Shown here piece after piece: positions 234 through 20,993 of a DNA stretch of 64,000 nt. The translations under genes were made by a program, and so were the position numbers. The notes below the pieces were generated by a model. The model searched no databases and was not told the origin of the DNA. It saw only the letters and a program-made list of their open reading frames with translations. The stretch is taken from IMG/VR virus record IMGVR_UViG_3300045988_125802; one strand, written 5' to 3'. The stretch is from a virus. Numbering within the stretch: the stretch's first letter is position 1; every line of letters begins with the position of its first letter.

Positions 234-305
234 ACTCTCATAGTTCAGTGGATAGAATAACTCTCTCCTAAAGAGTAGACACAAGTTCGAGTCTTGTTGG
301 GAGTA
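234..305 (+). tRNA. tRNA-Arg (anticodon CCT, reads AGG)
   Basis: Hand-folded cloverleaf. Acceptor 234-240/298-304 (7 bp, one G-T). D stem GTTC/GAAT. Anticodon stem ACTCT/AGAGT with 7-nt loop CTCCTAA. T arm ACAAG-TTCGAGT-CTTGT. Confidence 0.85.
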
Positions 306-421
306 CTGAGGTATTACTCATATAAGGTAATTTGATTGTTTTTAGGTAAAGGATTTTTAGTTCGGGTGACATATTGTCACTACAGGTCAAAGGTTCGTGA
401 GAATATTTGACCTTTTGTGAT

Positions 422-495
422 GTCTCCATAGCTCAATTGGATAGAGCAACAGACTTCTAATCTGTAGGTTGTGAGTTCGAGTCTCACTGGAGATA
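422..495 (+). tRNA. tRNA-Arg (anticodon TCT, reads AGA)
   Basis: Hand-folded cloverleaf. Acceptor GTCTCCA/TGGAGAT. D arm GCTC-AATTGGATA-GAGC. Anticodon stem ACAGA/TCTGT with loop CTTCTAA. T arm GTGAG-TTCGAGT-CTCAC. Confidence 0.9.
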
Positions 496-636
496 CAATG
501 TCTATTTAACCACTATTTCCTGACCATGCTGGGCAAAATGACTGAAAATGTGGTGCTGGTAGGTAAGCTACTGTTTCTTGTTTTAGCTTGTACTTTGTTC
601 TTAGAAAAGAATCAAAGCAATAGGGAATCACATTGG

Positions 637-720
637 GAATGTATAGCTTAATGGTAAAGCAGCGTGGTACCACTTCAAAACAATGAGAGCAAGATGTAGG
701 TTCAACTCCTACTACATTCC
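637..720 (+). ncRNA. tRNA-like element (about 84 nt) with no foldable canonical anticodon arm; possible tRNA pseudogene or non-canonical tRNA
   Basis: Perfect acceptor GAATGTA/TACATTC, D arm GCTT-AATGGTA-AAGC and T arm GTAGG-TTCAACT-CCTAC. The 34-nt central segment (contains palindrome GTGGTACCAC) gives no 5-bp stem with a 7-nt loop in any register I tried. Confidence 0.4.
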
Positions 721-1159
721 TATCTTATAATGGGGCATGATTGGTTTTGATTACTGATTATTTGGTAAGAGAACATGCAAAGACTGATGGAAAGACATCA
801 AACAATTAAATGGCACATCCTATAGAATTGCTGCCTGATTTAGGCTGAGTAGCACTTACTTGGAAACAGAAAGGTGTATTGCCTTAATAAATGGTTCTCT
901 GTTTTATAGATTAAGGCACTTATGAAACAAAAATAGAGGTTTATATATGATAAGATTAATCTACTTTAAAGTCTTATCTGTAACTATGAGTAGGTAGGAA
1001 AATTTCCTTATCAAATAGGAATATTATTAAATTGACAGATAACTAACTGTATAACAAATAAGTAAGCATGTGAAATTCTTTTATTAGAGGTTAGTAAGAC
1101 AGGGGTTCGAGTCCCCTATGCTCCACAAAACAATCTTAGTATTAACAAAAAAAAAAAGT

Positions 1160-3209: not shown

Positions 3210-3644
3210 ATGAGTGAAATCAAGTTAAGTCTGAGTATTGAGCTTCGAGGAAGCACAATGTTCAGCAAGGAGGAGTGCCTTAAAACAACTCACAAAGTGA
3301 TTGAGAAGAAGACCAAAGCTGGTAAAATCTACAAGAAAACCATTGAGGTAAAAGTAGAGGATTGGGACAAGATGGAGAAGCACACTATGAGAGTGACTGA
3401 CACAGATGGCACCAATCCAGAGATTATCACTTTCCATACAAGGAAGTGTAAGCCAGCTACACAGTCCCTGAACATGAGCAAAGAGGCTTATGAATATATG
3501 ATTGATAAGGATTCTTGTCCTTCATGGTCTAAGCCTGGCAGGTGGGCTGCAATGAGTGAAAAGGAAAGACTTGAAGCTCATTTGCAGAGAACCTGTGAGC
3601 ATGTAGGAGGTAAATCTTTCACTTATGAAGTGTTAGGAGATTAA
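3210..3644 (+). CDS. Hypothetical protein (144 aa)
   Basis: ORF starts 6 nt after the previous stop. No motif recognised. Confidence 0.6.
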   Translation: MSEIKLSLSIELRGSTMFSKEECLKTTHKVIEKKTKAGKIYKKTIEVKVEDWDKMEKHTMRVTDTDGTNPEIITFHTRKCKPATQSLNMSKEAYEYMIDKDSCPSWSKPGRWAAMSEKERLEAHLQRTCEHVGGKSFTYEVLGD

Positions 3645-3661
3645 TTATCTCAGTGTAAGAA

Positions 3662-3703
3662 GAAAGGAGTATGCTGAATAAGCTGCTCCTTTCTTTTTTT
3701 TTT
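3662..3703 (+). terminator. Rho-independent terminator-like hairpin plus T-run
   Basis: GAAAGGAG (3662-3669) pairs with CTCCTTTC (3686-3693), followed by T10 (3694-3703), just downstream of the stop at 3644. Confidence 0.5.
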
Positions 3704-3787
3704 AGTGTAAACTGATTAAATAATAAGGTTATTATGACTAAAAAAAAAGTATAACATAGTCTTAATGCCAAGGTAAATGATGGAGAT

Positions 3788-4330
3788 ATGGCAGAATTTG
3801 TATATTTCAAGAATGCTTGTAGGATGTGGTATCCTGTAGGACAGTATTTCTCTTCAGATAACTTTGATTATATAAGAGAAGCTGCATCTTCCATTAATAA
3901 AGTGTTCCCAACAGGTAAACTTATCTTGGTGGTAAGAGGTCATTCAGGCTCCATACTTGCAGGTAGTATAGCATATATACTGAAAAGGAAAGGTAGAAAA
4001 GTGTTAATATCTGTATCAAGGAAAGCAGAATCTACTCATGGTGACAATCTTGAAGGTGTATATCCTTCATGTATTTCAGATGATACACACATAATAGTTA
4101 TTGATGATTTTGTCCAATCAGGTGAAACTATTGAGGCTATACTCAAAGATTTGACTGAAAGAATAGAGGGTGTGGAAGTATTTGACATGTTATGTGTTGC
4201 TAATCACTGGGATGAGGATGATTTGACTGAGGAAGGAGGAAAGAGAGGAACTAACAGATATTGGGAGGCAAACAAAAGGATTGCTTCTCATTTTGAGTAT
4301 ATATTGTGCAACAGACCAGATGAGAAATGA
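3788..4330 (+). CDS. Type I phosphoribosyltransferase-domain protein (PRTase)
   Basis: PRPP-binding signature IIVIDDFVQSGET (4091-4129): hydrophobic run, two acidic residues, then xxSGxT. An upstream Rossmann-like strand LILVVRGHSG. Size (180 aa) fits small type I PRTases. Confidence 0.7.
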   Translation: MAEFVYFKNACRMWYPVGQYFSSDNFDYIREAASSINKVFPTGKLILVVRGHSGSILAGSIAYILKRKGRKVLISVSRKAESTHGDNLEGVYPSCISDDTHIIVIDDFVQSGETIEAILKDLTERIEGVEVFDMLCVANHWDEDDLTEEGGKRGTNRYWEANKRIASHFEYILCNRPDEK

Positions 4331-14663: not shown

Positions 14664-15371
14664 ATGGAAGCAAGAAAAATTACAGTCGTACAGACTAAGA
14701 ATCAGAAAAAGAGTGTTATCATGTCAGCAGCCACGACCCTTGCTGAGTTGAAAAGTGACCTGAGAGCCAATGGTATTGACTATAATGGTATGACCTTCTT
14801 TGAGGGTACATCAAAGGTTGAATTGAAGAATGATGCTTCAGTTCTGCCACATGATGTTCCTTACAAGGGCACTATCACAAATGAGTTGGTTTTCATGCTT
14901 ACTAATACCAACAAGAAAATCAGAAGTGGTGCTGTTGCAATGAGTAGAGCTGAGGCATACAATGCTATCAAATCTATGGGTTTGCAGGATGCTTGTGTAA
15001 AGAAGTTTGGCAAAAACTTCACTATGTGTAAGACTGCTGACCTTATTGCATTGGTACAGAGTAATGGTGCTTCAAAGCCTGCTCCTGCTGCTCCTAAAGC
15101 TGAAGCTAAGGCTGAGACTAAGAAGGAGGGAAAGGTAGAAGCACCTGTAAGTAATGGTGGTGAGTGTGTTGATACTGTAGCAAGAGCTGCTATCAGCAAG
15201 TTGGTGGAAATTCTTGAGGACAATGGCACAATTGAAGATTATGAGAAAGAGAAAGTGCTTGATATTCTTGGGGGTGCAGTAGAAGTTGCACCATCTGAGG
15301 AATATAAGCCTAAGTCAGCTTCTCCTTACTCTGATGATGAGATTGATGATATGTTTAATTTTGTAAACTAA
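14664..15371 (+). CDS. Hypothetical protein (235 aa) with an Ala/Lys/Pro-rich linker and acidic C-terminus
   Basis: ORF preceded by an A11 tract. Low-complexity stretch KPAPAAPKAEAKAETKKEGK. Confidence 0.6.
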   Translation: MEARKITVVQTKNQKKSVIMSAATTLAELKSDLRANGIDYNGMTFFEGTSKVELKNDASVLPHDVPYKGTITNELVFMLTNTNKKIRSGAVAMSRAEAYNAIKSMGLQDACVKKFGKNFTMCKTADLIALVQSNGASKPAPAAPKAEAKAETKKEGKVEAPVSNGGECVDTVARAAISKLVEILEDNGTIEDYEKEKVLDILGGAVEVAPSEEYKPKSASPYSDDEIDDMFNFVN

Positions 15372-15376
15372 ATTAT

Positions 15377-15916
15377 ATGGTTGAAATATGGAGACCTATA
15401 CAAGGATATGAAGGGTTATATGAAGTTTCTAATTTAGGGAATGTGAAATCTCTAAGTAGGAATGCTTTACTAAGCAAGCACAAGAATAACAGAGGATATT
15501 TATCTGTAAGCTTATACAAGGAAAATGTAGGAAAACATTATCTTGTACATAGACTTGTAGCACAGGCTTTTATTAATAATCCTTTCAACTTACCTTATGT
15601 AAATCATAAAGATGAGAACCCTATTAATAATGTTGTAAGCAATCTTGAGTGGTGTAGTCAAAGTTACAATGTAAATTATGGGAGTGCTCAAGAAAGACTC
15701 TCTTCAAAGAAAATTAGTAAAAAGAGAGGACTAAAAATAGCACAATATAGGGCAAGTATTCTTGTAAAGACTTATAACTCAGCTTCTCAAATACAAAGAG
15801 AGTTAGGATATAATACTGCTCCAATACTTAATTGTTGTAGAGGAGGATATTATAGAGGAGGTAAGTGGGTCTCAGTATCTCAATCTTATGGCTTTGTTTG
15901 GAAATTTGCAGAATAA
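15377..15916 (+). CDS. HNH homing endonuclease with NUMOD4-like N-terminus (free-standing)
   Basis: EIWRPIQGYEGLYEVSNLGNVKS (NUMOD4-like). HRLVAQAF...VNHKDENPINNVVSNLEW (HNH_3-type). Paralogous to the ORFs at 24596, 27600 and 47364. Confidence 0.8.
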   Translation: MVEIWRPIQGYEGLYEVSNLGNVKSLSRNALLSKHKNNRGYLSVSLYKENVGKHYLVHRLVAQAFINNPFNLPYVNHKDENPINNVVSNLEWCSQSYNVNYGSAQERLSSKKISKKRGLKIAQYRASILVKTYNSASQIQRELGYNTAPILNCCRGGYYRGGKWVSVSQSYGFVWKFAE

Positions 15917-15920
15917 TATA

Positions 15921-15966
15921 GTAGGTGAGGAGATTAGAAATGCCCCCTTACCTACTTTTTTTTTTA
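15921..15966 (+). terminator. Rho-independent terminator
   Basis: GTAGGTGAGG (15921-15930) pairs with CCTTACCTAC (15946-15955), followed by a T-run of about 11 nt. Confidence 0.6.
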
Positions 15967-15973
15967 CAGTAAT

Positions 15974-17278
15974 ATGAGTGGAGAAACAATTAAATTAATT
16001 GAGGAGAAGATAGAAGAACTATATAACTCCTTGATGGACAGACCACTCCGAGTATTAAGCATATTCAATGACTTTTTTGGAGAGGATAAAGTTGATATGC
16101 AAGGATATTGGAGTTTGGACAAGTTCAAATCTTGGATGAATATAGAGCCTTTATCTACTTATATTCCTGATGGTAATATTGTAAGCATGAACAGGAATGA
16201 CTGGAGCATGTATAAAACATGGGCTATTACTGATTTACCTGGAGACCAGGTAGAAAAGGTTGTAAATGTGCTTACAAGTACTACAGTAAAGGAAAGAATT
16301 GGTAATGCTAAGTTCAATGGCATATTCATTCTTGTACATTTTCCTCATATAAGAGTAACTAATGAGCATGACAGATTTGTGGATATTAACCATCTGTGGG
16401 CTAAGGTAAAAGTAATGTATAATGGCACATTGAATGGTGGATTTACACTTAACAGGTCAGAATATACTATGCTTCACATTAGCAGTGGATATATGCACAG
16501 TCATATCGATAGTATTCCTACAAGTGACTTTACCAGTTTTCAGAATCCTTGCACAGGCAATGGTCCCATCAATGGTACTATTAGTGCCCTCAATAGGGAT
16601 TATGATGAGGATATATGGAATATGTTTTGTCTTGAGCTAAGTAAGTATGTAACTGTAGAATCCATTGCTGGCAGACCTTATAAATATCTGGAAAAGTTAG
16701 GTACTAATAACATGGAGATGGGTGTAGATAGGTTTGTTACATATCTATCACCAGGCTACTACTATGGGGGTGCTCTTAGTTCTGATAAGTTGAAGGAGTT
16801 TGTAAGAGGCTTTATCAATTCAAAGAAACTTAAATTCAATTATGTAAATGGCTCTTATTCTATTGGTATGTCACTTATTGAGTTTATTGTACTTATTAGC
16901 AATGAATTTATTAAGTGGTATAATGACCAGTTTAATAAAGAGGAACTAACTGCCAAGTTTGCAGAATTGAAGAGGAAAGGTACCTTGAAAGAATGTATCA
17001 TAGATAATGGGAAGATTTACTATGATAAAGGTAGGAACAATGTAAATACCTATGCCCAATATATAGGCAAGAAGGTTTGCATGTTCAAGGGAAGAGAGGT
17101 TACTGTTGATATTACAGATATTGCTGAGGTAAGGAATGAGAATAAGAGTATAATTCTTAATATTCGTACCGCACTATACATATTAGCAACAATACTTAAA
17201 GTGTTAAATTATAGATATGGAAGAAGTAAAGCAACCCACGAAAGTAATCAGCTTGGTACAGAAGTCAGGTACTTATAA
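15974..17278 (+). CDS. Hypothetical protein (434 aa), first gene of the JAB/E1 cluster
   Basis: Long ORF. Its last 62 nt overlap the JAB ORF in another frame. Contains a GYMHSH...NPCTGNGP segment of unknown significance. Confidence 0.6.
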   Translation: MSGETIKLIEEKIEELYNSLMDRPLRVLSIFNDFFGEDKVDMQGYWSLDKFKSWMNIEPLSTYIPDGNIVSMNRNDWSMYKTWAITDLPGDQVEKVVNVLTSTTVKERIGNAKFNGIFILVHFPHIRVTNEHDRFVDINHLWAKVKVMYNGTLNGGFTLNRSEYTMLHISSGYMHSHIDSIPTSDFTSFQNPCTGNGPINGTISALNRDYDEDIWNMFCLELSKYVTVESIAGRPYKYLEKLGTNNMEMGVDRFVTYLSPGYYYGGALSSDKLKEFVRGFINSKKLKFNYVNGSYSIGMSLIEFIVLISNEFIKWYNDQFNKEELTAKFAELKRKGTLKECIIDNGKIYYDKGRNNVNTYAQYIGKKVCMFKGREVTVDITDIAEVRNENKSIILNIRTALYILATILKVLNYRYGRSKATHESNQLGTEVRYL

Positions 17279-18434
17279 TTATAAGCTGATTATCCCAGCA
17301 GAAGTGGAGAGAAAGATAAGATTTGCCTGCCAAAAGGTGTGGAGTACTGAATGGTCAGGTACACTATTCTTTACACATGAAGGTTCATTTGAAAATAATG
17401 ACCTTGTAATAAGATGTGTGGATATTTACATTATGGATATTGGTACTCAAGCCTATACAGAGTTTGATATGAATCCTGATGTGATAGCCTATATGTGTGA
17501 GAATCCTGAGCTACTTGATTGCCAAATAGGTCTTATACATTCCCATAACAATATGAGTACTTTCTTTAGTGGAACAGATACTGCTACTCTAAAGGAGGAA
17601 GGTAGGGATAGAAATAACTTTGTATCTCTCATTGTGAATAATGCAGGTACTTATACTGCTGCAATTACAAGGAGAGTTAAGTCAAAGCAGGTCAAAGAGT
17701 CTGTGTCTTATGAGTTCTTTGGTGATGGTGAAAAGCATGATACTAAGGAATATGTAAGTAGTGCAGATGAAATTGAATGGTTCTATCTTAAAATAGAGAA
17801 TGAAAATGAAACATTTTCATTCCCAGACATGGCAGCAAGACTTGAGGAAATCGAGCAAGCCAAAGCAGAAAGGGCAGAGAAAGCTAAGAAAGCTCGAACA
17901 CCTGTATATCAAGGTGGCTATAAACCTGTTATTGCTAATTCCTATGGTACAAAGGCAGGTCCAGCAAATCTTGTCAAGAAGGAAGCTGATAAGCCTAAGG
18001 TAGCTCAGCCAACTCTCTTTGATAATGCAGATGACTTGCCATTTGAAGAGGGGTATGACATACCTTATGGTCATGTATCATTTGATAAGGTTACTTTGAA
18101 ATCTCTTGTACTTCAATTGATTACAGGTAGTATTATCATTTCTAATGATAGTAAGATTGACATTACTAAATGGGCTAAGTCAATGCCTACACTGTATGAA
18201 AAGAGGTTTGGTAAAGGCAAAGCTGGTATGGATAATTTCAAGATATGGGCAGAGACCTATGCAGAGTATCTGACATGGTATATAACAGATGAGAAATTAG
18301 AAGAGCTTGGCTTTGATGAAACAGAAATTTGTGCTATTTGTGCCCATGATATGATAGAGGAGCTTACAAAACTCCCTGAAAATGATTATATCAAAGGGTA
18401 TATTGATGCACTTCAAAAGTATTTAGTATTATGA
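17217..18434 (+). CDS. JAB/MPN (JAMM) metalloprotease-domain protein with an unknown C-terminal domain of about 200 aa
   Basis: JAMM signature HSHNNMSTFFSGTD (HxHx7Sx2D, 17538-17579), with an upstream conserved Glu context (STEWSGTLFF). Confidence 0.7.
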   Translation: MEEVKQPTKVISLVQKSGTYNYKLIIPAEVERKIRFACQKVWSTEWSGTLFFTHEGSFENNDLVIRCVDIYIMDIGTQAYTEFDMNPDVIAYMCENPELLDCQIGLIHSHNNMSTFFSGTDTATLKEEGRDRNNFVSLIVNNAGTYTAAITRRVKSKQVKESVSYEFFGDGEKHDTKEYVSSADEIEWFYLKIENENETFSFPDMAARLEEIEQAKAERAEKAKKARTPVYQGGYKPVIANSYGTKAGPANLVKKEADKPKVAQPTLFDNADDLPFEEGYDIPYGHVSFDKVTLKSLVLQLITGSIIISNDSKIDITKWAKSMPTLYEKRFGKGKAGMDNFKIWAETYAEYLTWYITDEKLEELGFDETEICAICAHDMIEELTKLPENDYIKGYIDALQKYLVL

Positions 18435-19549
18435 GTGAAGAAGCAATTGAGGCATATAACTCTCTTATGGAGAGCCTCAATGAAGGTGATGTTCGTGAAT
18501 ATAATGAGGTGGGACATGCTGACCTTAGTACCTTCAACAGTGTCCTTAATAGTATTAGAATGGGTCTCATTACCTCTCTTTATGTTGTTGGTTTGGATGG
18601 TGTACCTAATACCTATAAAATTGTATATAGTAGCACTGAAGGTGTAACAGGTAGAATCTTTGTCAATGAACACTTCAAAAGTTTAATTGAAGAGGCTTGG
18701 GCTATAAGGATAGGTAACTCTGTAGAAGATGATGGTGACAGCATTAGCTTTGAACTTTCAGAGGAAGAACAGGCTATTCTTGACCAAGCTGTAGAAGATG
18801 CACACCAAGAGATACCTACAAACTCTGCAACTTTGCTTGTGGATGAAGCTACAAGTAGGTTTAGTTCTGCCATTTGGTATGAGAACATTCAGAAGAAGAC
18901 TGTCATTTTGGCAGGTGTAGGTGGCATTGGTAGTTATGTAGGCTTCTTATTGGCAAGAATGAAGCCAGCTTCCATGTTTATCTATGATGATGACATAGTG
19001 GAAACTGTCAATATGTCAGGTCAGTTATATGGTCAATCTGATTTAGGTAGACCTAAAGTATCTGCACTGGCTGAGATGATTAGAAACTATGCTGGCTATA
19101 GCAGTGTCTTTGCAATAAGGGAAAGATTCACTGATGAATCTGAGGCATCAGACATTATGATTTGTGGCTTTGATAACATGGCAGCAAGAAGACTCTTCTT
19201 TAATAAATGGGTAAATCATGTTCAATCCAAACCAGAGGAGGAAAGGAAGAATTGCCTGTTCATTGATGGTAGGTTGGCAGCAGAGGAGTTTCAGGTATTG
19301 TGTATCAAGGGAGATGATGAGTACAACATCAATAGGTACAATAATGAGTTCCTATTCTCTGATGCAGAAGCTGATGAAACTATCTGCTCCTATAAACAAA
19401 CTACCTTCTGTGCAAATATGATTGCATCTTATATGGTTAATTTGTTTGTAAACTTCTGTGCTAATCAATGTGAGCCTCTCATTGATAGAGACCTGCCATT
19501 CCTTACCACATATAATGCAGAAACAATGTATCTTAAAACTGAAGTATAA
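18431..19549 (+). CDS. E1/ThiF/MoeB-like adenylyltransferase with an extra N-terminal domain of about 150 aa
   Basis: Rossmann motif VILAGVGGIGSYVGFLLA (GVGGIGS at 18914-18934), followed by IYDDDIVETVNMSGQLY and GRPKVSAL. This matches the ThiF-family pattern GxGGxGS...DxDxVxxSNLxRQ...GxxK. ATGA-coupled to the JAB gene. Confidence 0.8.
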   Translation: MSEEAIEAYNSLMESLNEGDVREYNEVGHADLSTFNSVLNSIRMGLITSLYVVGLDGVPNTYKIVYSSTEGVTGRIFVNEHFKSLIEEAWAIRIGNSVEDDGDSISFELSEEEQAILDQAVEDAHQEIPTNSATLLVDEATSRFSSAIWYENIQKKTVILAGVGGIGSYVGFLLARMKPASMFIYDDDIVETVNMSGQLYGQSDLGRPKVSALAEMIRNYAGYSSVFAIRERFTDESEASDIMICGFDNMAARRLFFNKWVNHVQSKPEEERKNCLFIDGRLAAEEFQVLCIKGDDEYNINRYNNEFLFSDAEADETICSYKQTTFCANMIASYMVNLFVNFCANQCEPLIDRDLPFLTTYNAETMYLKTEV

Positions 19550-20319
19550 TGGAATTTAACCCAAGATTTGCATATAATGTAATGGGTGTTTTCAATAGCA
19601 GTGAGTCTGGTAATCCAGACCAGCTTGAAATGAATCTGTCTCTTGATAGTAACAATGTATTTAGAAGAAGCCTTGTCATTGAAGTAAACAATGATGAGGT
19701 AGAGATACCTGTGATTGCAAGAGAACACTTTGAGAAGCTGGTTTCAGACAATATGGCTTATCCCGCAATTATGGGAATCAAGAGGATAATATTGCCATTA
19801 TATGACAATGCACCAAGCCAAGAAAGAAGAACCTTTGATAGTATCATAGCTCAATTATTTACTAATGTAGGATATGGTAAAGGATTGCAGAAGATAACTA
19901 CCAATAAGGGTGAAGTGTATTATGGTGGTAAAGGTATCATCTTTGATGAGAGCTACACTCCATTACTATTATGTACATTAACTGCAAGAAGTGTACATAC
20001 TGAGGATAATGGTAATGCTATGGTCTATTACAGACCTGTATGCCATGTCAGTCCCAAAGTATTCTTAGAGTCTGATAAGTTGATTAATAAAGGCATCATC
20101 AAGAAATTGATTCCCTATTATACAAGTAGGGATATAAATTTCCCAAGAAACAATTACAGCTTCAGCAGTAATCCAGAGGACAGGAAAGTAAAGGTCATAG
20201 TAGATAATTTCAATAAGTTCTTTGTAGAACCTATTAAACCTACTCCATCTGCCTGCTCTAATGATGCACTGAATGAATGCCTTATTGACAATATTGATGA
20301 CATAATGATGTTGATATGA
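19549..20319 (+). CDS. Hypothetical protein (256 aa), last gene of the JAB/E1 cluster
   Basis: Start overlaps the E1 stop by 1 nt (TAATG). No motif recognised. Confidence 0.6.
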   Translation: MEFNPRFAYNVMGVFNSSESGNPDQLEMNLSLDSNNVFRRSLVIEVNNDEVEIPVIAREHFEKLVSDNMAYPAIMGIKRIILPLYDNAPSQERRTFDSIIAQLFTNVGYGKGLQKITTNKGEVYYGGKGIIFDESYTPLLLCTLTARSVHTEDNGNAMVYYRPVCHVSPKVFLESDKLINKGIIKKLIPYYTSRDINFPRNNYSFSSNPEDRKVKVIVDNFNKFFVEPIKPTPSACSNDALNECLIDNIDDIMMLI

Positions 20320-20993
20320 CATTAGATGAATACTTTGGAGATTGGATGAAGGTAATTGATAGGACAGAGCTTAATAATGTAATGGCTAAGGTTGGGCAAG
20401 AATACAGGAGGAAACCATTGTGTCCTGCCCAATCTGATGTATTCAGAGCATTTGAGCTTTGCCCTCTCAATGACTTGAAAGTAGTTATGTTAGGTCAAGA
20501 CCCCTATCCACAAAAGGAAGTGGCAACTGGAGTATTATTCGGGAATAGAAAGGAAGTTGATGAGGATAACTTATCTCCTTCATTAAATGTTGTTAAAGAG
20601 GCAGCAATTAATTTTGAAGTTCCACATTATTGTATTACCTTTGACAACTCTCTTGAGAGTTGGTCTAAACAAGGAATACTAATGATAAATTCTGCACTCA
20701 CTGTAGAAATGAATAGGATAGGTTCCCATGTGATGTTGTGGAGACCCTTCATAGCTAAATTGCTAAAGAACTTGTCTGAATATAATACAGCTATAGTATA
20801 TGTATTGTTTGGCAGGCAAGCCCAAACCTTCAAACCTTATATTAATGATAGGTTCAATCATATCATAGAGATTGAACATCCTGCATACTTTGCAAGGAGT
20901 GGTACTAAGATGCCACATCAGCTATTTGTTGATATAAGTAATAAGGTAAAAGAGATTTATGGTGTACCTATAAAATGGTACGAAGAGTATTAA
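20316..20993 (+). CDS. ung: Uracil-DNA glycosylase (family 1-like)
   Basis: VVMLGQDPYP (GQDPY water-activating loop), a LINSALT-type segment and a C-terminal EHPAYF (HPS-like) motif. Size 225 aa. Confidence 0.75.
   Translation: MTLDEYFGDWMKVIDRTELNNVMAKVGQEYRRKPLCPAQSDVFRAFELCPLNDLKVVMLGQDPYPQKEVATGVLFGNRKEVDEDNLSPSLNVVKEAAINFEVPHYCITFDNSLESWSKQGILMINSALTVEMNRIGSHVMLWRPFIAKLLKNLSEYNTAIVYVLFGRQAQTFKPYINDRFNHIIEIEHPAYFARSGTKMPHQLFVDISNKVKEIYGVPIKWYEEY

Follow-up and report, generated by a model that had tools for sequence, protein, structure and literature searches.

A candidate ubiquitin-like activation and conjugation module in the replication block of crAss001-type and related phages

The viral record IMGVR_UViG_3300045988_125802, a stretch of 64,000 nucleotides referred to below as the window, carries on its + strand five co-oriented genes (ORF0, ORF1, JAB, E1, and ORF4) within the replication and repair genes of a crAss-like gut phage of the crAss001 type. 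We propose, with a probability of about 0.6, that these genes encode a phage module for the activation and conjugation of a ubiquitin-like protein (Ubl). The E1-like enzyme and the JAB metalloprotease were assigned to a Ubl transfer module, and not to a thiamine or molybdopterin cassette, because the domain encoded by ORF0 ends in an invariant Gly, the gene order matches that of bacterial Bil operons when ORF1 takes the E2 position, and 50 diverse loci showed no partner genes for sulfur or cofactor metabolism. A preliminary description, made from the letters of the window alone, had already suggested a Ubl-type module. Its core idea is strengthened by these three points, but several of its specifics turned out to be wrong or unsupported.

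The four open reading frames (ORFs) described previously between positions 15974 and 20319 were recovered with the same coordinates and overlaps: ORF1 (434 residues; 15974..17278, + strand), JAB (405 residues; 17217..18434, +), E1 (372 residues; 18431-19549, +), and ORF4 (256 residues; 19549..20319, +). ORF1 and JAB overlap by 62 nt, the JAB stop and the E1 start share an ATGA, and E1 and ORF4 overlap by 1 nt. A further ATGA overlap joins ORF4 to a UDG gene (20316-20993, +; Pfam UDG, 6.7e-13). The 62-nt overlap has an identical length in crAss001 and bajarodcaudo virus (125 nt in FpV4 and 80 nt in Dulem 41), suggesting translational coupling of ORF1 and JAB. Programmed frameshifting over this overlap found no support, although no detailed search for a signal was made: JAB lies in the +1 frame, no evidence of a fusion was found, and the separate ends of the two genes are conserved in relatives.

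The module itself starts further upstream, with ORF0 (235 residues; 14664..15371, +). ORF0 and ORF1 are separated in the window by a NUMOD4/HNH homing endonuclease gene (15377..15916, +; Pfam NUMOD4, 1.5e-15, plus HNH_3), a mobile insertion that is not a component of the system, and by a terminator-like hairpin with a T10 run that ends the insert (15920..15966, +; dG −15.5 kcal/mol, z −3.6). This hairpin, with a stem of 11 bp and a loop of 15 nt (15920-15956) preceding the T10, was absent from the automatic terminator scan because of the length of its loop. In crAss001, bajarodcaudo virus, Dulem 41, and FpV4, the HNH gene is absent between ORF0 and ORF1, as is the hairpin in the first two, and the ORF0-like gene directly adjoins ORF1. 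The HNH gene and its own hairpin thus split a contiguous module in the window, and the putative Ubl gene was therefore hidden from the preliminary description, in which the cluster was bracketed by the terminator and UDG. The hairpin is real and UDG does lie downstream, but the hairpin belongs to the insertion and marks no boundary.

The JAMM motif reported in JAB was confirmed to be complete. The protein contains the string HSHNNMSTFFSGTD and, upstream of it, the Glu (EWSG); both are conserved across 56 diverse homologues, among which E45-W-S-G and H108-S-H110-x7-S118-x2-D121 (17538-17579) are invariant or nearly so. The catalytic domain covers approximately residues 30-160, and its motif is in register with those of archaeal JAMM1 and CSN5. 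The protein of the window reached 22.7 bits on Pfam Prok-JAB, for which the cutoff is 25; within the family, 32 of the 56 members matched this model (E<=0.01) and 19 of the 56 matched the CBASS-type JAB model of PADLOC (Cap3), the best at 6e-8. The C-terminal region of approximately 240 residues is poorly conserved and apparently helical, its sole matches being weak ones to designed helical bundles. The JAB gene is interrupted within the JAMM motif in L105 (4636-6951) and also in L111, L132, and Fpv1/Fpv2/Fpv20. The L105 gene breaks off after ...GGIHTH and resumes at ...FFSGTD, on either side of an insert of about 1.1 kb that carries an antisense LAGLIDADG endonuclease.

The assignment of the following gene to the E1/ThiF family was likewise upheld, with a match to Pfam ThiF (1.3e-17, 64.2 bits for a cutoff of 28.1), and a placement in a non-E1 Rossmann family, named beforehand as the alternative, was not borne out. 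Cap2-type 'E1-E2' models of PADLOC matched the protein down to 7e-12, in their E1 part only, and the BilD model matched at 5e-5. A family profile made from 50 sequences (pairwise <60% identical) matched UBA5, MccB, PaaA, ThiF, TcdA, and MoeB at 1e-15 to 1e-12, over the nucleotide-binding half only, and the BubCD structure was also among its matches. Alignment by hhalign with MoeB and ThiF gave E values of about 1e-11. The invariant or near-invariant positions are R143, G162-x-G164-G-I-G-S168, D186/D188, N194, K209, D248-N249, R253, D279-G-R281, Y303, C319, and T324. In the hhalign alignment, which spans the crossover region, C319 (19385-19387) is aligned with Cys184 of E. coli ThiF, and it is predicted to be a crossover-loop Cys able to carry an acyl intermediate.

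The adenylation core of E1, of the ThiF/MoeB/UBA5 type (18857..19549, +), is a single domain of approximately 230 residues. It is preceded in the window by an N-terminal extension of about 142 residues (18431..18856, +), which is hypervariable among relatives that are 85-97% identical (matches start at residues 1, 52, 62, 78, 100, and others), contains no Cys, and is absent outside gut Steigviridae-like phages; the E1 proteins of FpV4 and Dulem 41 comprise only 228-235 residues and lack it. This region, previously suspected of harboring a cryptic E2 or Ubl, is a lineage-specific accessory. More distant ThiF/E1-like genes were also seen in unrelated phages, namely Xanthomonas jumbo phages PhiXhv, Moraxella Mcat phages, and Acinetobacter phage MD-2021a, without tblastn matches to ORF1 or JAB, and may belong to other E1-based systems.

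ORF0 corresponds to PHROG 15560, which is annotated as of unknown function. A hidden Markov model (HMM) survey detected the family in 160 loci, directly upstream of ORF1 in 149 of them, and five loci seemingly without ORF0 contain divergent equivalents ending in ...KQMKAG or ...KDGKQG; ORF0 was present upstream of ORF1 wherever the flank of the locus was long enough. In the window, the N-terminal domain (residues 1-89; 14664..14930, +), the predicted Ubl moiety, ends in N-K-K-I-R-S-G89 and is followed by a variable extension of 146 residues (14931..15371, +) that is predicted to be released after Gly89. The Gly that ends the domain is invariant in all 56 non-redundant intact members, in 50 of which it forms part of a Ser-Gly pair. 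The length of the domain is 72-94 residues in nearly all relatives, with one outlier of 126, and the consensus leading to the Gly is P-K-K-[VIT]-K-S-G; conservation stops at the very next residue, and the tails that follow range from 1 to 209 residues depending on the lineage. No Pfam or PHROG match was found for the tail. Stand-alone domains of 75-91 residues end 1-5 residues past the Gly. Domain-only forms occur in six environmental lineages, where the last residues before the stop codon are ...KVKSGF, ...KVKSGK, ...KTKSGK, ...KVKSGTSI, ...KVKSGNKN, and ...KVKSGNEKKH. Judged from these sequences, ORF0 has the anatomy of a candidate Ubl precursor that would need C-terminal trimming.

In three close relatives (L023, L057, and L058), ORF0 is split and encodes a free product of 91 residues, which stops after ...KKIRSG-IC or ...KKIKSG-KF. 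Inspection of one of these split loci, L023 (3174-4475), showed an HNH/NUMOD4 gene (3464-3976) exactly after the Ser-Gly codons, at the junction between Ubl and tail, and a separate ORF encoding the tail; the split ORF0 of L023 is a natural 'cleaved' version of the gene. Rfam revealed no group I intron at the split ORF0 or split JAB genes. A group I catalytic intron was detected downstream of the module in L023 (9679-9922, +; Rfam RF00028, 84.8 bits). The idea that the ORF0 tail had moved to the N-terminus of ORF1 in lineages with a stand-alone Ubl was rejected, as no similarity was found and the length correlation was −0.11. By eye, the hydrophobic pattern of the N-terminal domain reads beta-beta-amphipathic helix-beta-beta-beta, which is compatible with a beta-grasp, and a hydrophobic-periodicity score did not discriminate helix from strand in it. 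The Ubl had previously been suspected in the flanking ORFs and in the extra domains of JAB and E1. No further Ubl-like copy was found in the E1 N-extension, the JAB C-terminus, or ORF4, leaving ORF0 as the sole one in the window.

The gene between ORF0 and JAB, in the position that an E2 enzyme occupies in Bil operons, encodes the enzyme-like protein ORF1. Its family comprises 3233 clusters at 50% identity (1.84 billion representatives searched), and each of the top 150 clusters is a full-length protein of 340-445 residues in a single stretch; longer variants (490-690 residues) showed no fused known domain. Alignments of 58 and 56 sequences, otherwise 15-20% identical, revealed as invariant N130, R161, Y173, H175-S176-H177 (16496-16504), C193-x-G195 (16550-16558), and E229-S230-x-x-G233-x-P235 (16658-16678). 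An AlphaFold2 model of ORF1, for which the alignment was deepened with 22 divergent homologues, reached a pLDDT of 85 and a pTM of 0.67, with values of 87-94 in the motif-bearing loops. A model based on a shallower alignment (homologues at 88-92% identity together with clades at 57% and 72%) was set aside, with a pLDDT of 63.6, a conserved core below 50, and an uninformative Foldseek search. The retained model runs from a long N-terminal helix through a short strand, a helical insert, and three long antiparallel strands to the H-S-H loop, Cys193, and two helices, a predicted order of elements that recalls the UBC layout. We consider it an almost even chance, and no better, that ORF1 acts as acceptor or transferase of the Ubl; alternatively, it may be another peptidase or a scaffold that binds targets. 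The more specific motif-based ideas of a second JAB/MPN domain, an HUH nuclease, or a caspase-like protease received no support from Pfam, the PDB, or Foldseek.

The family of ORF4 was detected in 103 loci, and BLAST divided the genes that follow E1 into 33 clusters, which an iterative HMM search did not merge into a single family. Profile-profile comparison (hhalign) linked the cluster of the window to that of FpV4 gp49 (E 2.5e-5 over 105 columns), and further clusters were interlinked at 89-94% probability. In all, approximately 140 of 175 loci were connected in this way, which makes ORF4 a probable fifth component of the module, and a fast-evolving one. No Pfam, PHROG, or PDB match was found for it. 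None of its Cys, His, or Ser residues is invariant, so that ORF4 suits an adaptor or a target better than an enzyme; we regard it as a candidate for either.

The nearest record to the window, bajarodcaudo virus 1, is approximately 80% identical in nucleotide sequence over the block, and the crAss001-type Bacteroides phages (Steigviridae) match at the nucleotide level in the E1 gene only (about 73%). In crAss001, the block is formed by gp79-gp75, of which gp77 is annotated as 'metalloprotease domain containing protein' and gp76 as 'thiamine biosynthesis protein, ThiF'; the UDG gp74 comes next. The module, which the preliminary description did not recall as a characteristic crAss-like gene set, is in fact characteristic of crAss001-type phages. 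In tblastn searches, ORF1, JAB, and E1 occurred together in the same taxa, with 74 phage records each, and ORF4 in 40 only; these taxa were Steigviridae-like gut phages, the Flavobacterium psychrophilum FpV4 group, and Dulem virus 41. Scans with degenerate patterns found the E1 subfamily on 398 viral contigs.

Among 185,579 prokaryotic species, each represented by one genome, only 11 E1 matches were obtained, all on contigs of metagenome-assembled genomes (MAGs) with phage-like gene density. These contigs (L165-L175) had been binned as Bacilli, Clostridium, Thermotogaceae, Spirochaetia, Acholeplasmatales, or Puia. L168 measures 94 kb, about as much as a crAss-like genome, L165 (the one inspected) shows the one-strand gene packing of a phage, and two others measure 374 and 640 kb. 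They are probably mis-binned phage contigs or, in the 374- and 640-kb contigs, prophage-like elements, and the distribution of the module is essentially viral.

A survey of synteny, suggested as a check in the preliminary description, covered 176 loci (175 fetched loci and the window). The order ORF1-JAB-E1 had no exception wherever the flank sufficed, and its conservation is therefore far beyond chance. With ORF0 included, the order ORF0-ORF1-JAB-E1 is likewise invariant, in about 170 loci. In the 50 most diverse loci, the recurrent co-oriented neighbors were a Toprim primase (44/50), a PDDEXK exonuclease, UDG, a 5'-3' exonuclease, and RNR.

We propose the following mechanism. The JAMM protease would cut ORF0 after Ser88-Gly89, releasing a Ubl of approximately 89 residues with a free C-terminal Gly and a separate C-terminal fragment. 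The small, probably homodimeric E1 of the ThiF/UBA5 type would adenylate Gly89 with ATP, and the Ubl would then be loaded onto the crossover-loop Cys319 as a thioester. ORF1, with its invariant Cys193 flanked by His175, His177, and Glu229, would receive the Ubl and/or direct it onto target lysines, with the fast-evolving ORF4 as a candidate adaptor or target, and the JAB protease may also be able to reverse conjugation. The wider proposal, that lytic Bacteroidota phages, including those of the crAss001 type, possess a complete and self-contained Ubl conjugation pathway with a non-UBC enzyme in the E2 slot, which tags phage or host proteins during genome replication, is put forward tentatively, at somewhat less than even odds.

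Several results weigh against the assignment of this block to Ubl conjugation. A profile search of the PDB with the N-terminal domain of ORF0 found no match, and among 55 members the Pfam matches were single and below threshold (ThiS, 0.014; DUF348, 0.015; DIX, 0.044). Alignment by hhalign with ubiquitin (E 0.13) and with ThiS (E 0.06) was not significant, with the beta2-alpha1 register as expected. We infer a beta-grasp fold for this domain, and its candidate terminus is Ser-Gly, not Gly-Gly. In E1, the Arg of the N-L-x-R-Q motif (the position of MoeB Arg73) is replaced by Gly197 in at least 90% of the 50 members, R143 being retained, and the Zn-binding CxxC pairs are missing; its competence for adenylation is therefore no more than plausible. 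As for ORF1, a Foldseek search with the pLDDT-85 model gave no PDB match at E<0.5 and no E2 among the top matches, the same search against BFVD returned only its own uncharacterised relatives, hhalign of the family against four canonical UBC E2s gave a probability of 0.05%, and none of the 58 members matched the Pfam families UQ_con or Prok-E2, nor did any other Pfam family recur among them. Membership of the E2/UBC family was accordingly rejected, and the cryptic E2-like fold anticipated in ORF1 was not recognisable by profile or structure comparison; a transferase role is therefore something that we infer from the position of the gene and its Cys/His/Glu signature. The targets may be phage or host proteins of replication or defence.

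The closest parallel is provided by the Bil systems. In these operons, the order Ubl-E2-DUB-E1 is invariant, and the JAB deubiquitinase (DUB) was shown to remove a C-terminal extension of the Ubl, exposing its Gly (PMC10557695). The phage genes follow the order of BilABCD (type I/II Bil; 'CEHH/6C') provided that ORF1 is taken for the E2-slot protein, which likewise has a conserved Cys and His, and the phage E1 weakly matches the BilD model; the corresponding processing of the phage Ubl is a prediction. However, the phage module lies in the replication block of lytic phages and Bil in bacterial defence islands. The phage E1 is a minimal adenylation domain with a crossover-loop Cys, whereas BilD consists of IAD, AAD, and CYS domains, and ORF1, unlike the UBC-like BilB, shows neither a UBC fold nor UBC-like sequence. 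The predicted phage Ubl family is unrelated in sequence (ORF0 gave no match to BilA) and ends in Ser-Gly, and no capH/capP regulators are present.

Precedent for strongly diverged E1/E2 chemistry, together with Ubl-fusion pre-proteins cleaved by JAB, exists in bacteria in the Bub systems ('6E/DUF6527'; PMC11601596). Bub, however, relies on Tyr/Ser oxyesters and a DUF6527 serine protease, whereas the phage E1 keeps the Cys at the ThiF Cys184 position and no DUF6527 protein accompanies it. In phages, the only earlier-noted pairing of an extended Ubl-like domain with a JAB protein is that of the lambda/T1-type tail-assembly proteins TAPI (Ubl with a C-terminal extension) and TAPK (JAB plus NlpC/P60), where JAB was predicted to release the Ubl (PMC1779556). 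That pair differs in having no E1 and no E2-slot protein and in belonging to the tail-assembly, not the replication, cluster.

Both phage enzymes find their best defence-library matches in type II CBASS, E1 in Cap2 (E2-E1; 7e-12) and JAB, at the family level, in Cap3 (6e-8). Unlike Cap2, the phage E1 has no fused E2 domain, its N-extension being Cys-free and dispensable; no CD-NTase or effector is found among the neighbors, and a dedicated putative Ubl takes the place of the CD-NTase C-terminus. The archaeal SAMP-UbaA-JAMM1 and Thermus TtuB-TtuC-JAMM systems combine a small, Cys-bearing E1 of the MoeB/ThiF type with a small Ubl and with a JAMM protease that serves maturation as well as deconjugation. 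These are cellular, need no E2-slot protein, use a Gly-Gly end, and also act as sulfur carriers, with sulfurtransferase partners that can be identified. The phage module shares the small E1 and the JAMM protease with them and differs by the addition of ORF1 and ORF4 and by having no sulfur genes nearby.

The dual nature of the SAMP/UbaA and TtuB/TtuC pathways, which serve both sulfur carriage and conjugation, leads to the main rival explanation. The N-terminal domain of ORF0 may be a ThiS/MoaD-like sulfur carrier that is adenylated by E1 and converted to a thiocarboxylate, the sulfur being passed on to a nucleotide, a tRNA, or a DNA base; ORF1 would be the sulfurtransferase, and JAB would act in maturation only. 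This explanation would account for the small ThiF/MoeB/UBA5-type E1 and its 'thiamine biosynthesis protein' label in crAss001-type records, for the invariant Cys aligned with ThiF Cys184, for the H-x-H/C/E residues of ORF1 as a possible metal or persulfide site, and for the location of the module among genes of nucleotide and DNA metabolism. However, none of the 50 diverse loci contained a recurrent gene for a rhodanese, cysteine desulfurase, PP-loop ATPase, radical-SAM protein, ThiG/ThiH, or MoaE-type protein, so that a cofactor-biosynthesis (ThiS/MoaD-ThiF/MoeB) cassette, the outcome that the preliminary description had named as refuting its proposal, was rejected. The Ser-Gly end of the ORF0 domain and precursor tails of up to 209 residues also argue against a sulfur carrier, as do the colinearity with the conjugating Bil operons and the resemblance of JAB to the deconjugating proteases of the CBASS Cap3 type. 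We consider this explanation distinctly unlikely. A peptide-nucleotide chemistry of the kind found in ribosomally synthesised and post-translationally modified peptides (RiPPs) appears highly improbable. In that case E1, acting like MccB or PaaA, would modify the C-terminus of an ORF0-derived product (peptidyl-AMP, cyclisation) without protein conjugation. MccB and PaaA are indeed among the best solved-structure matches of E1, and the missing canonical Arg hints at altered chemistry, but these matches are restricted to the shared nucleotide-binding half, and in most lineages the E1 core has no extra N-terminal domain for substrate binding. The candidate substrate is a conserved domain of approximately 72-94 residues ending in Gly and not a short peptide, and the co-occurrence with JAB and the Bil colinearity fit conjugation better.

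It is also conceivable, although unlikely, that the module serves counter-defence, in which case the phage JAB and E1 would strip conjugates of the host or titrate components of its Bil, Bub, or type II CBASS systems, and ORF0 would act as a decoy Ubl. The matches of the JAB family to Cap3-type models and of E1 to Cap2- and BilD-type models are compatible with such a function, the fast evolution of ORF4 resembles an arms race, and a role of phage tail-assembly DUB domains in countering Bil has already been raised as a speculation (10.1101/2023.09.04.556158). A deconjugase alone would be enough for this purpose, yet a Ubl precursor, an E1 with an intact ATP site and Cys, and ORF1 have been kept in strict order across divergent phages. 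As a putative Ubl and an E1 are supplied by the phage itself, a pure remover of conjugates is less likely than a self-contained system, and the constant site among the replication genes points to a core function for the phage, not to an accessory island for anti-defence.

The surroundings of the module were also analyzed. The window is AT-rich (GC about 35%) and is transcribed from the + strand up to approximately 48 kb, where GC skew and AT skew reverse sign, a reversal that fits a change of coding strand from the replication block to the remainder of the genome. A tRNA cluster (Arg-CCT, Arg-TCT, and Trp-CCA) lies at the start of the window (234-721), and is followed by a tmRNA call of ARAGORN (732-1126) that had no Rfam support and is probably a false positive.

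Our literature search, with many subscription papers outside its coverage, turned up no account of this module for lytic phages, crAss-like or other, and the main comparative paper on crAss phages (Yutin 2021, PMC7886860) makes no mention of JAB, MPN, ThiF, or ubiquitin. Compared with the known systems, the new elements are the replication context in lytic phages, a minimal E1 without one Arg, an unrelated family of putative Ubl proteins ending in Ser-Gly, and, in the E2 slot, a large protein that is not of the UBC type. The five hypothetical or mis-annotated genes gp79-gp75 of crAss001, a cultivable model phage, thereby receive names and testable roles, and the 'thiamine biosynthesis protein' label of gp76 is almost certainly wrong. 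For proteomics, the proposed conjugation predicts a Lys-epsilon-(Ser-Gly) remnant after digestion with trypsin.

Descriptions of Ubl conjugation in bacteria, by type II CBASS, Bil, and Bub, have until now cast it as immunity of the host against phages. If the proposed reading is true, bacterial viruses would also wield ubiquitin-type tagging, much as eukaryotic viruses manipulate ubiquitin. Such tagging would then be a viral weapon or tool in prokaryotes besides a means of cellular defence, and Ubl transfer would have been invented on a second, non-UBC scaffold. The module contributes candidates for a new Ubl family and for a non-UBC transferase, and it may be of wide relevance: crAss001-type phages are abundant in the human gut, the module is present on hundreds of viral contigs, and the ORF1 family extends over thousands of clusters.

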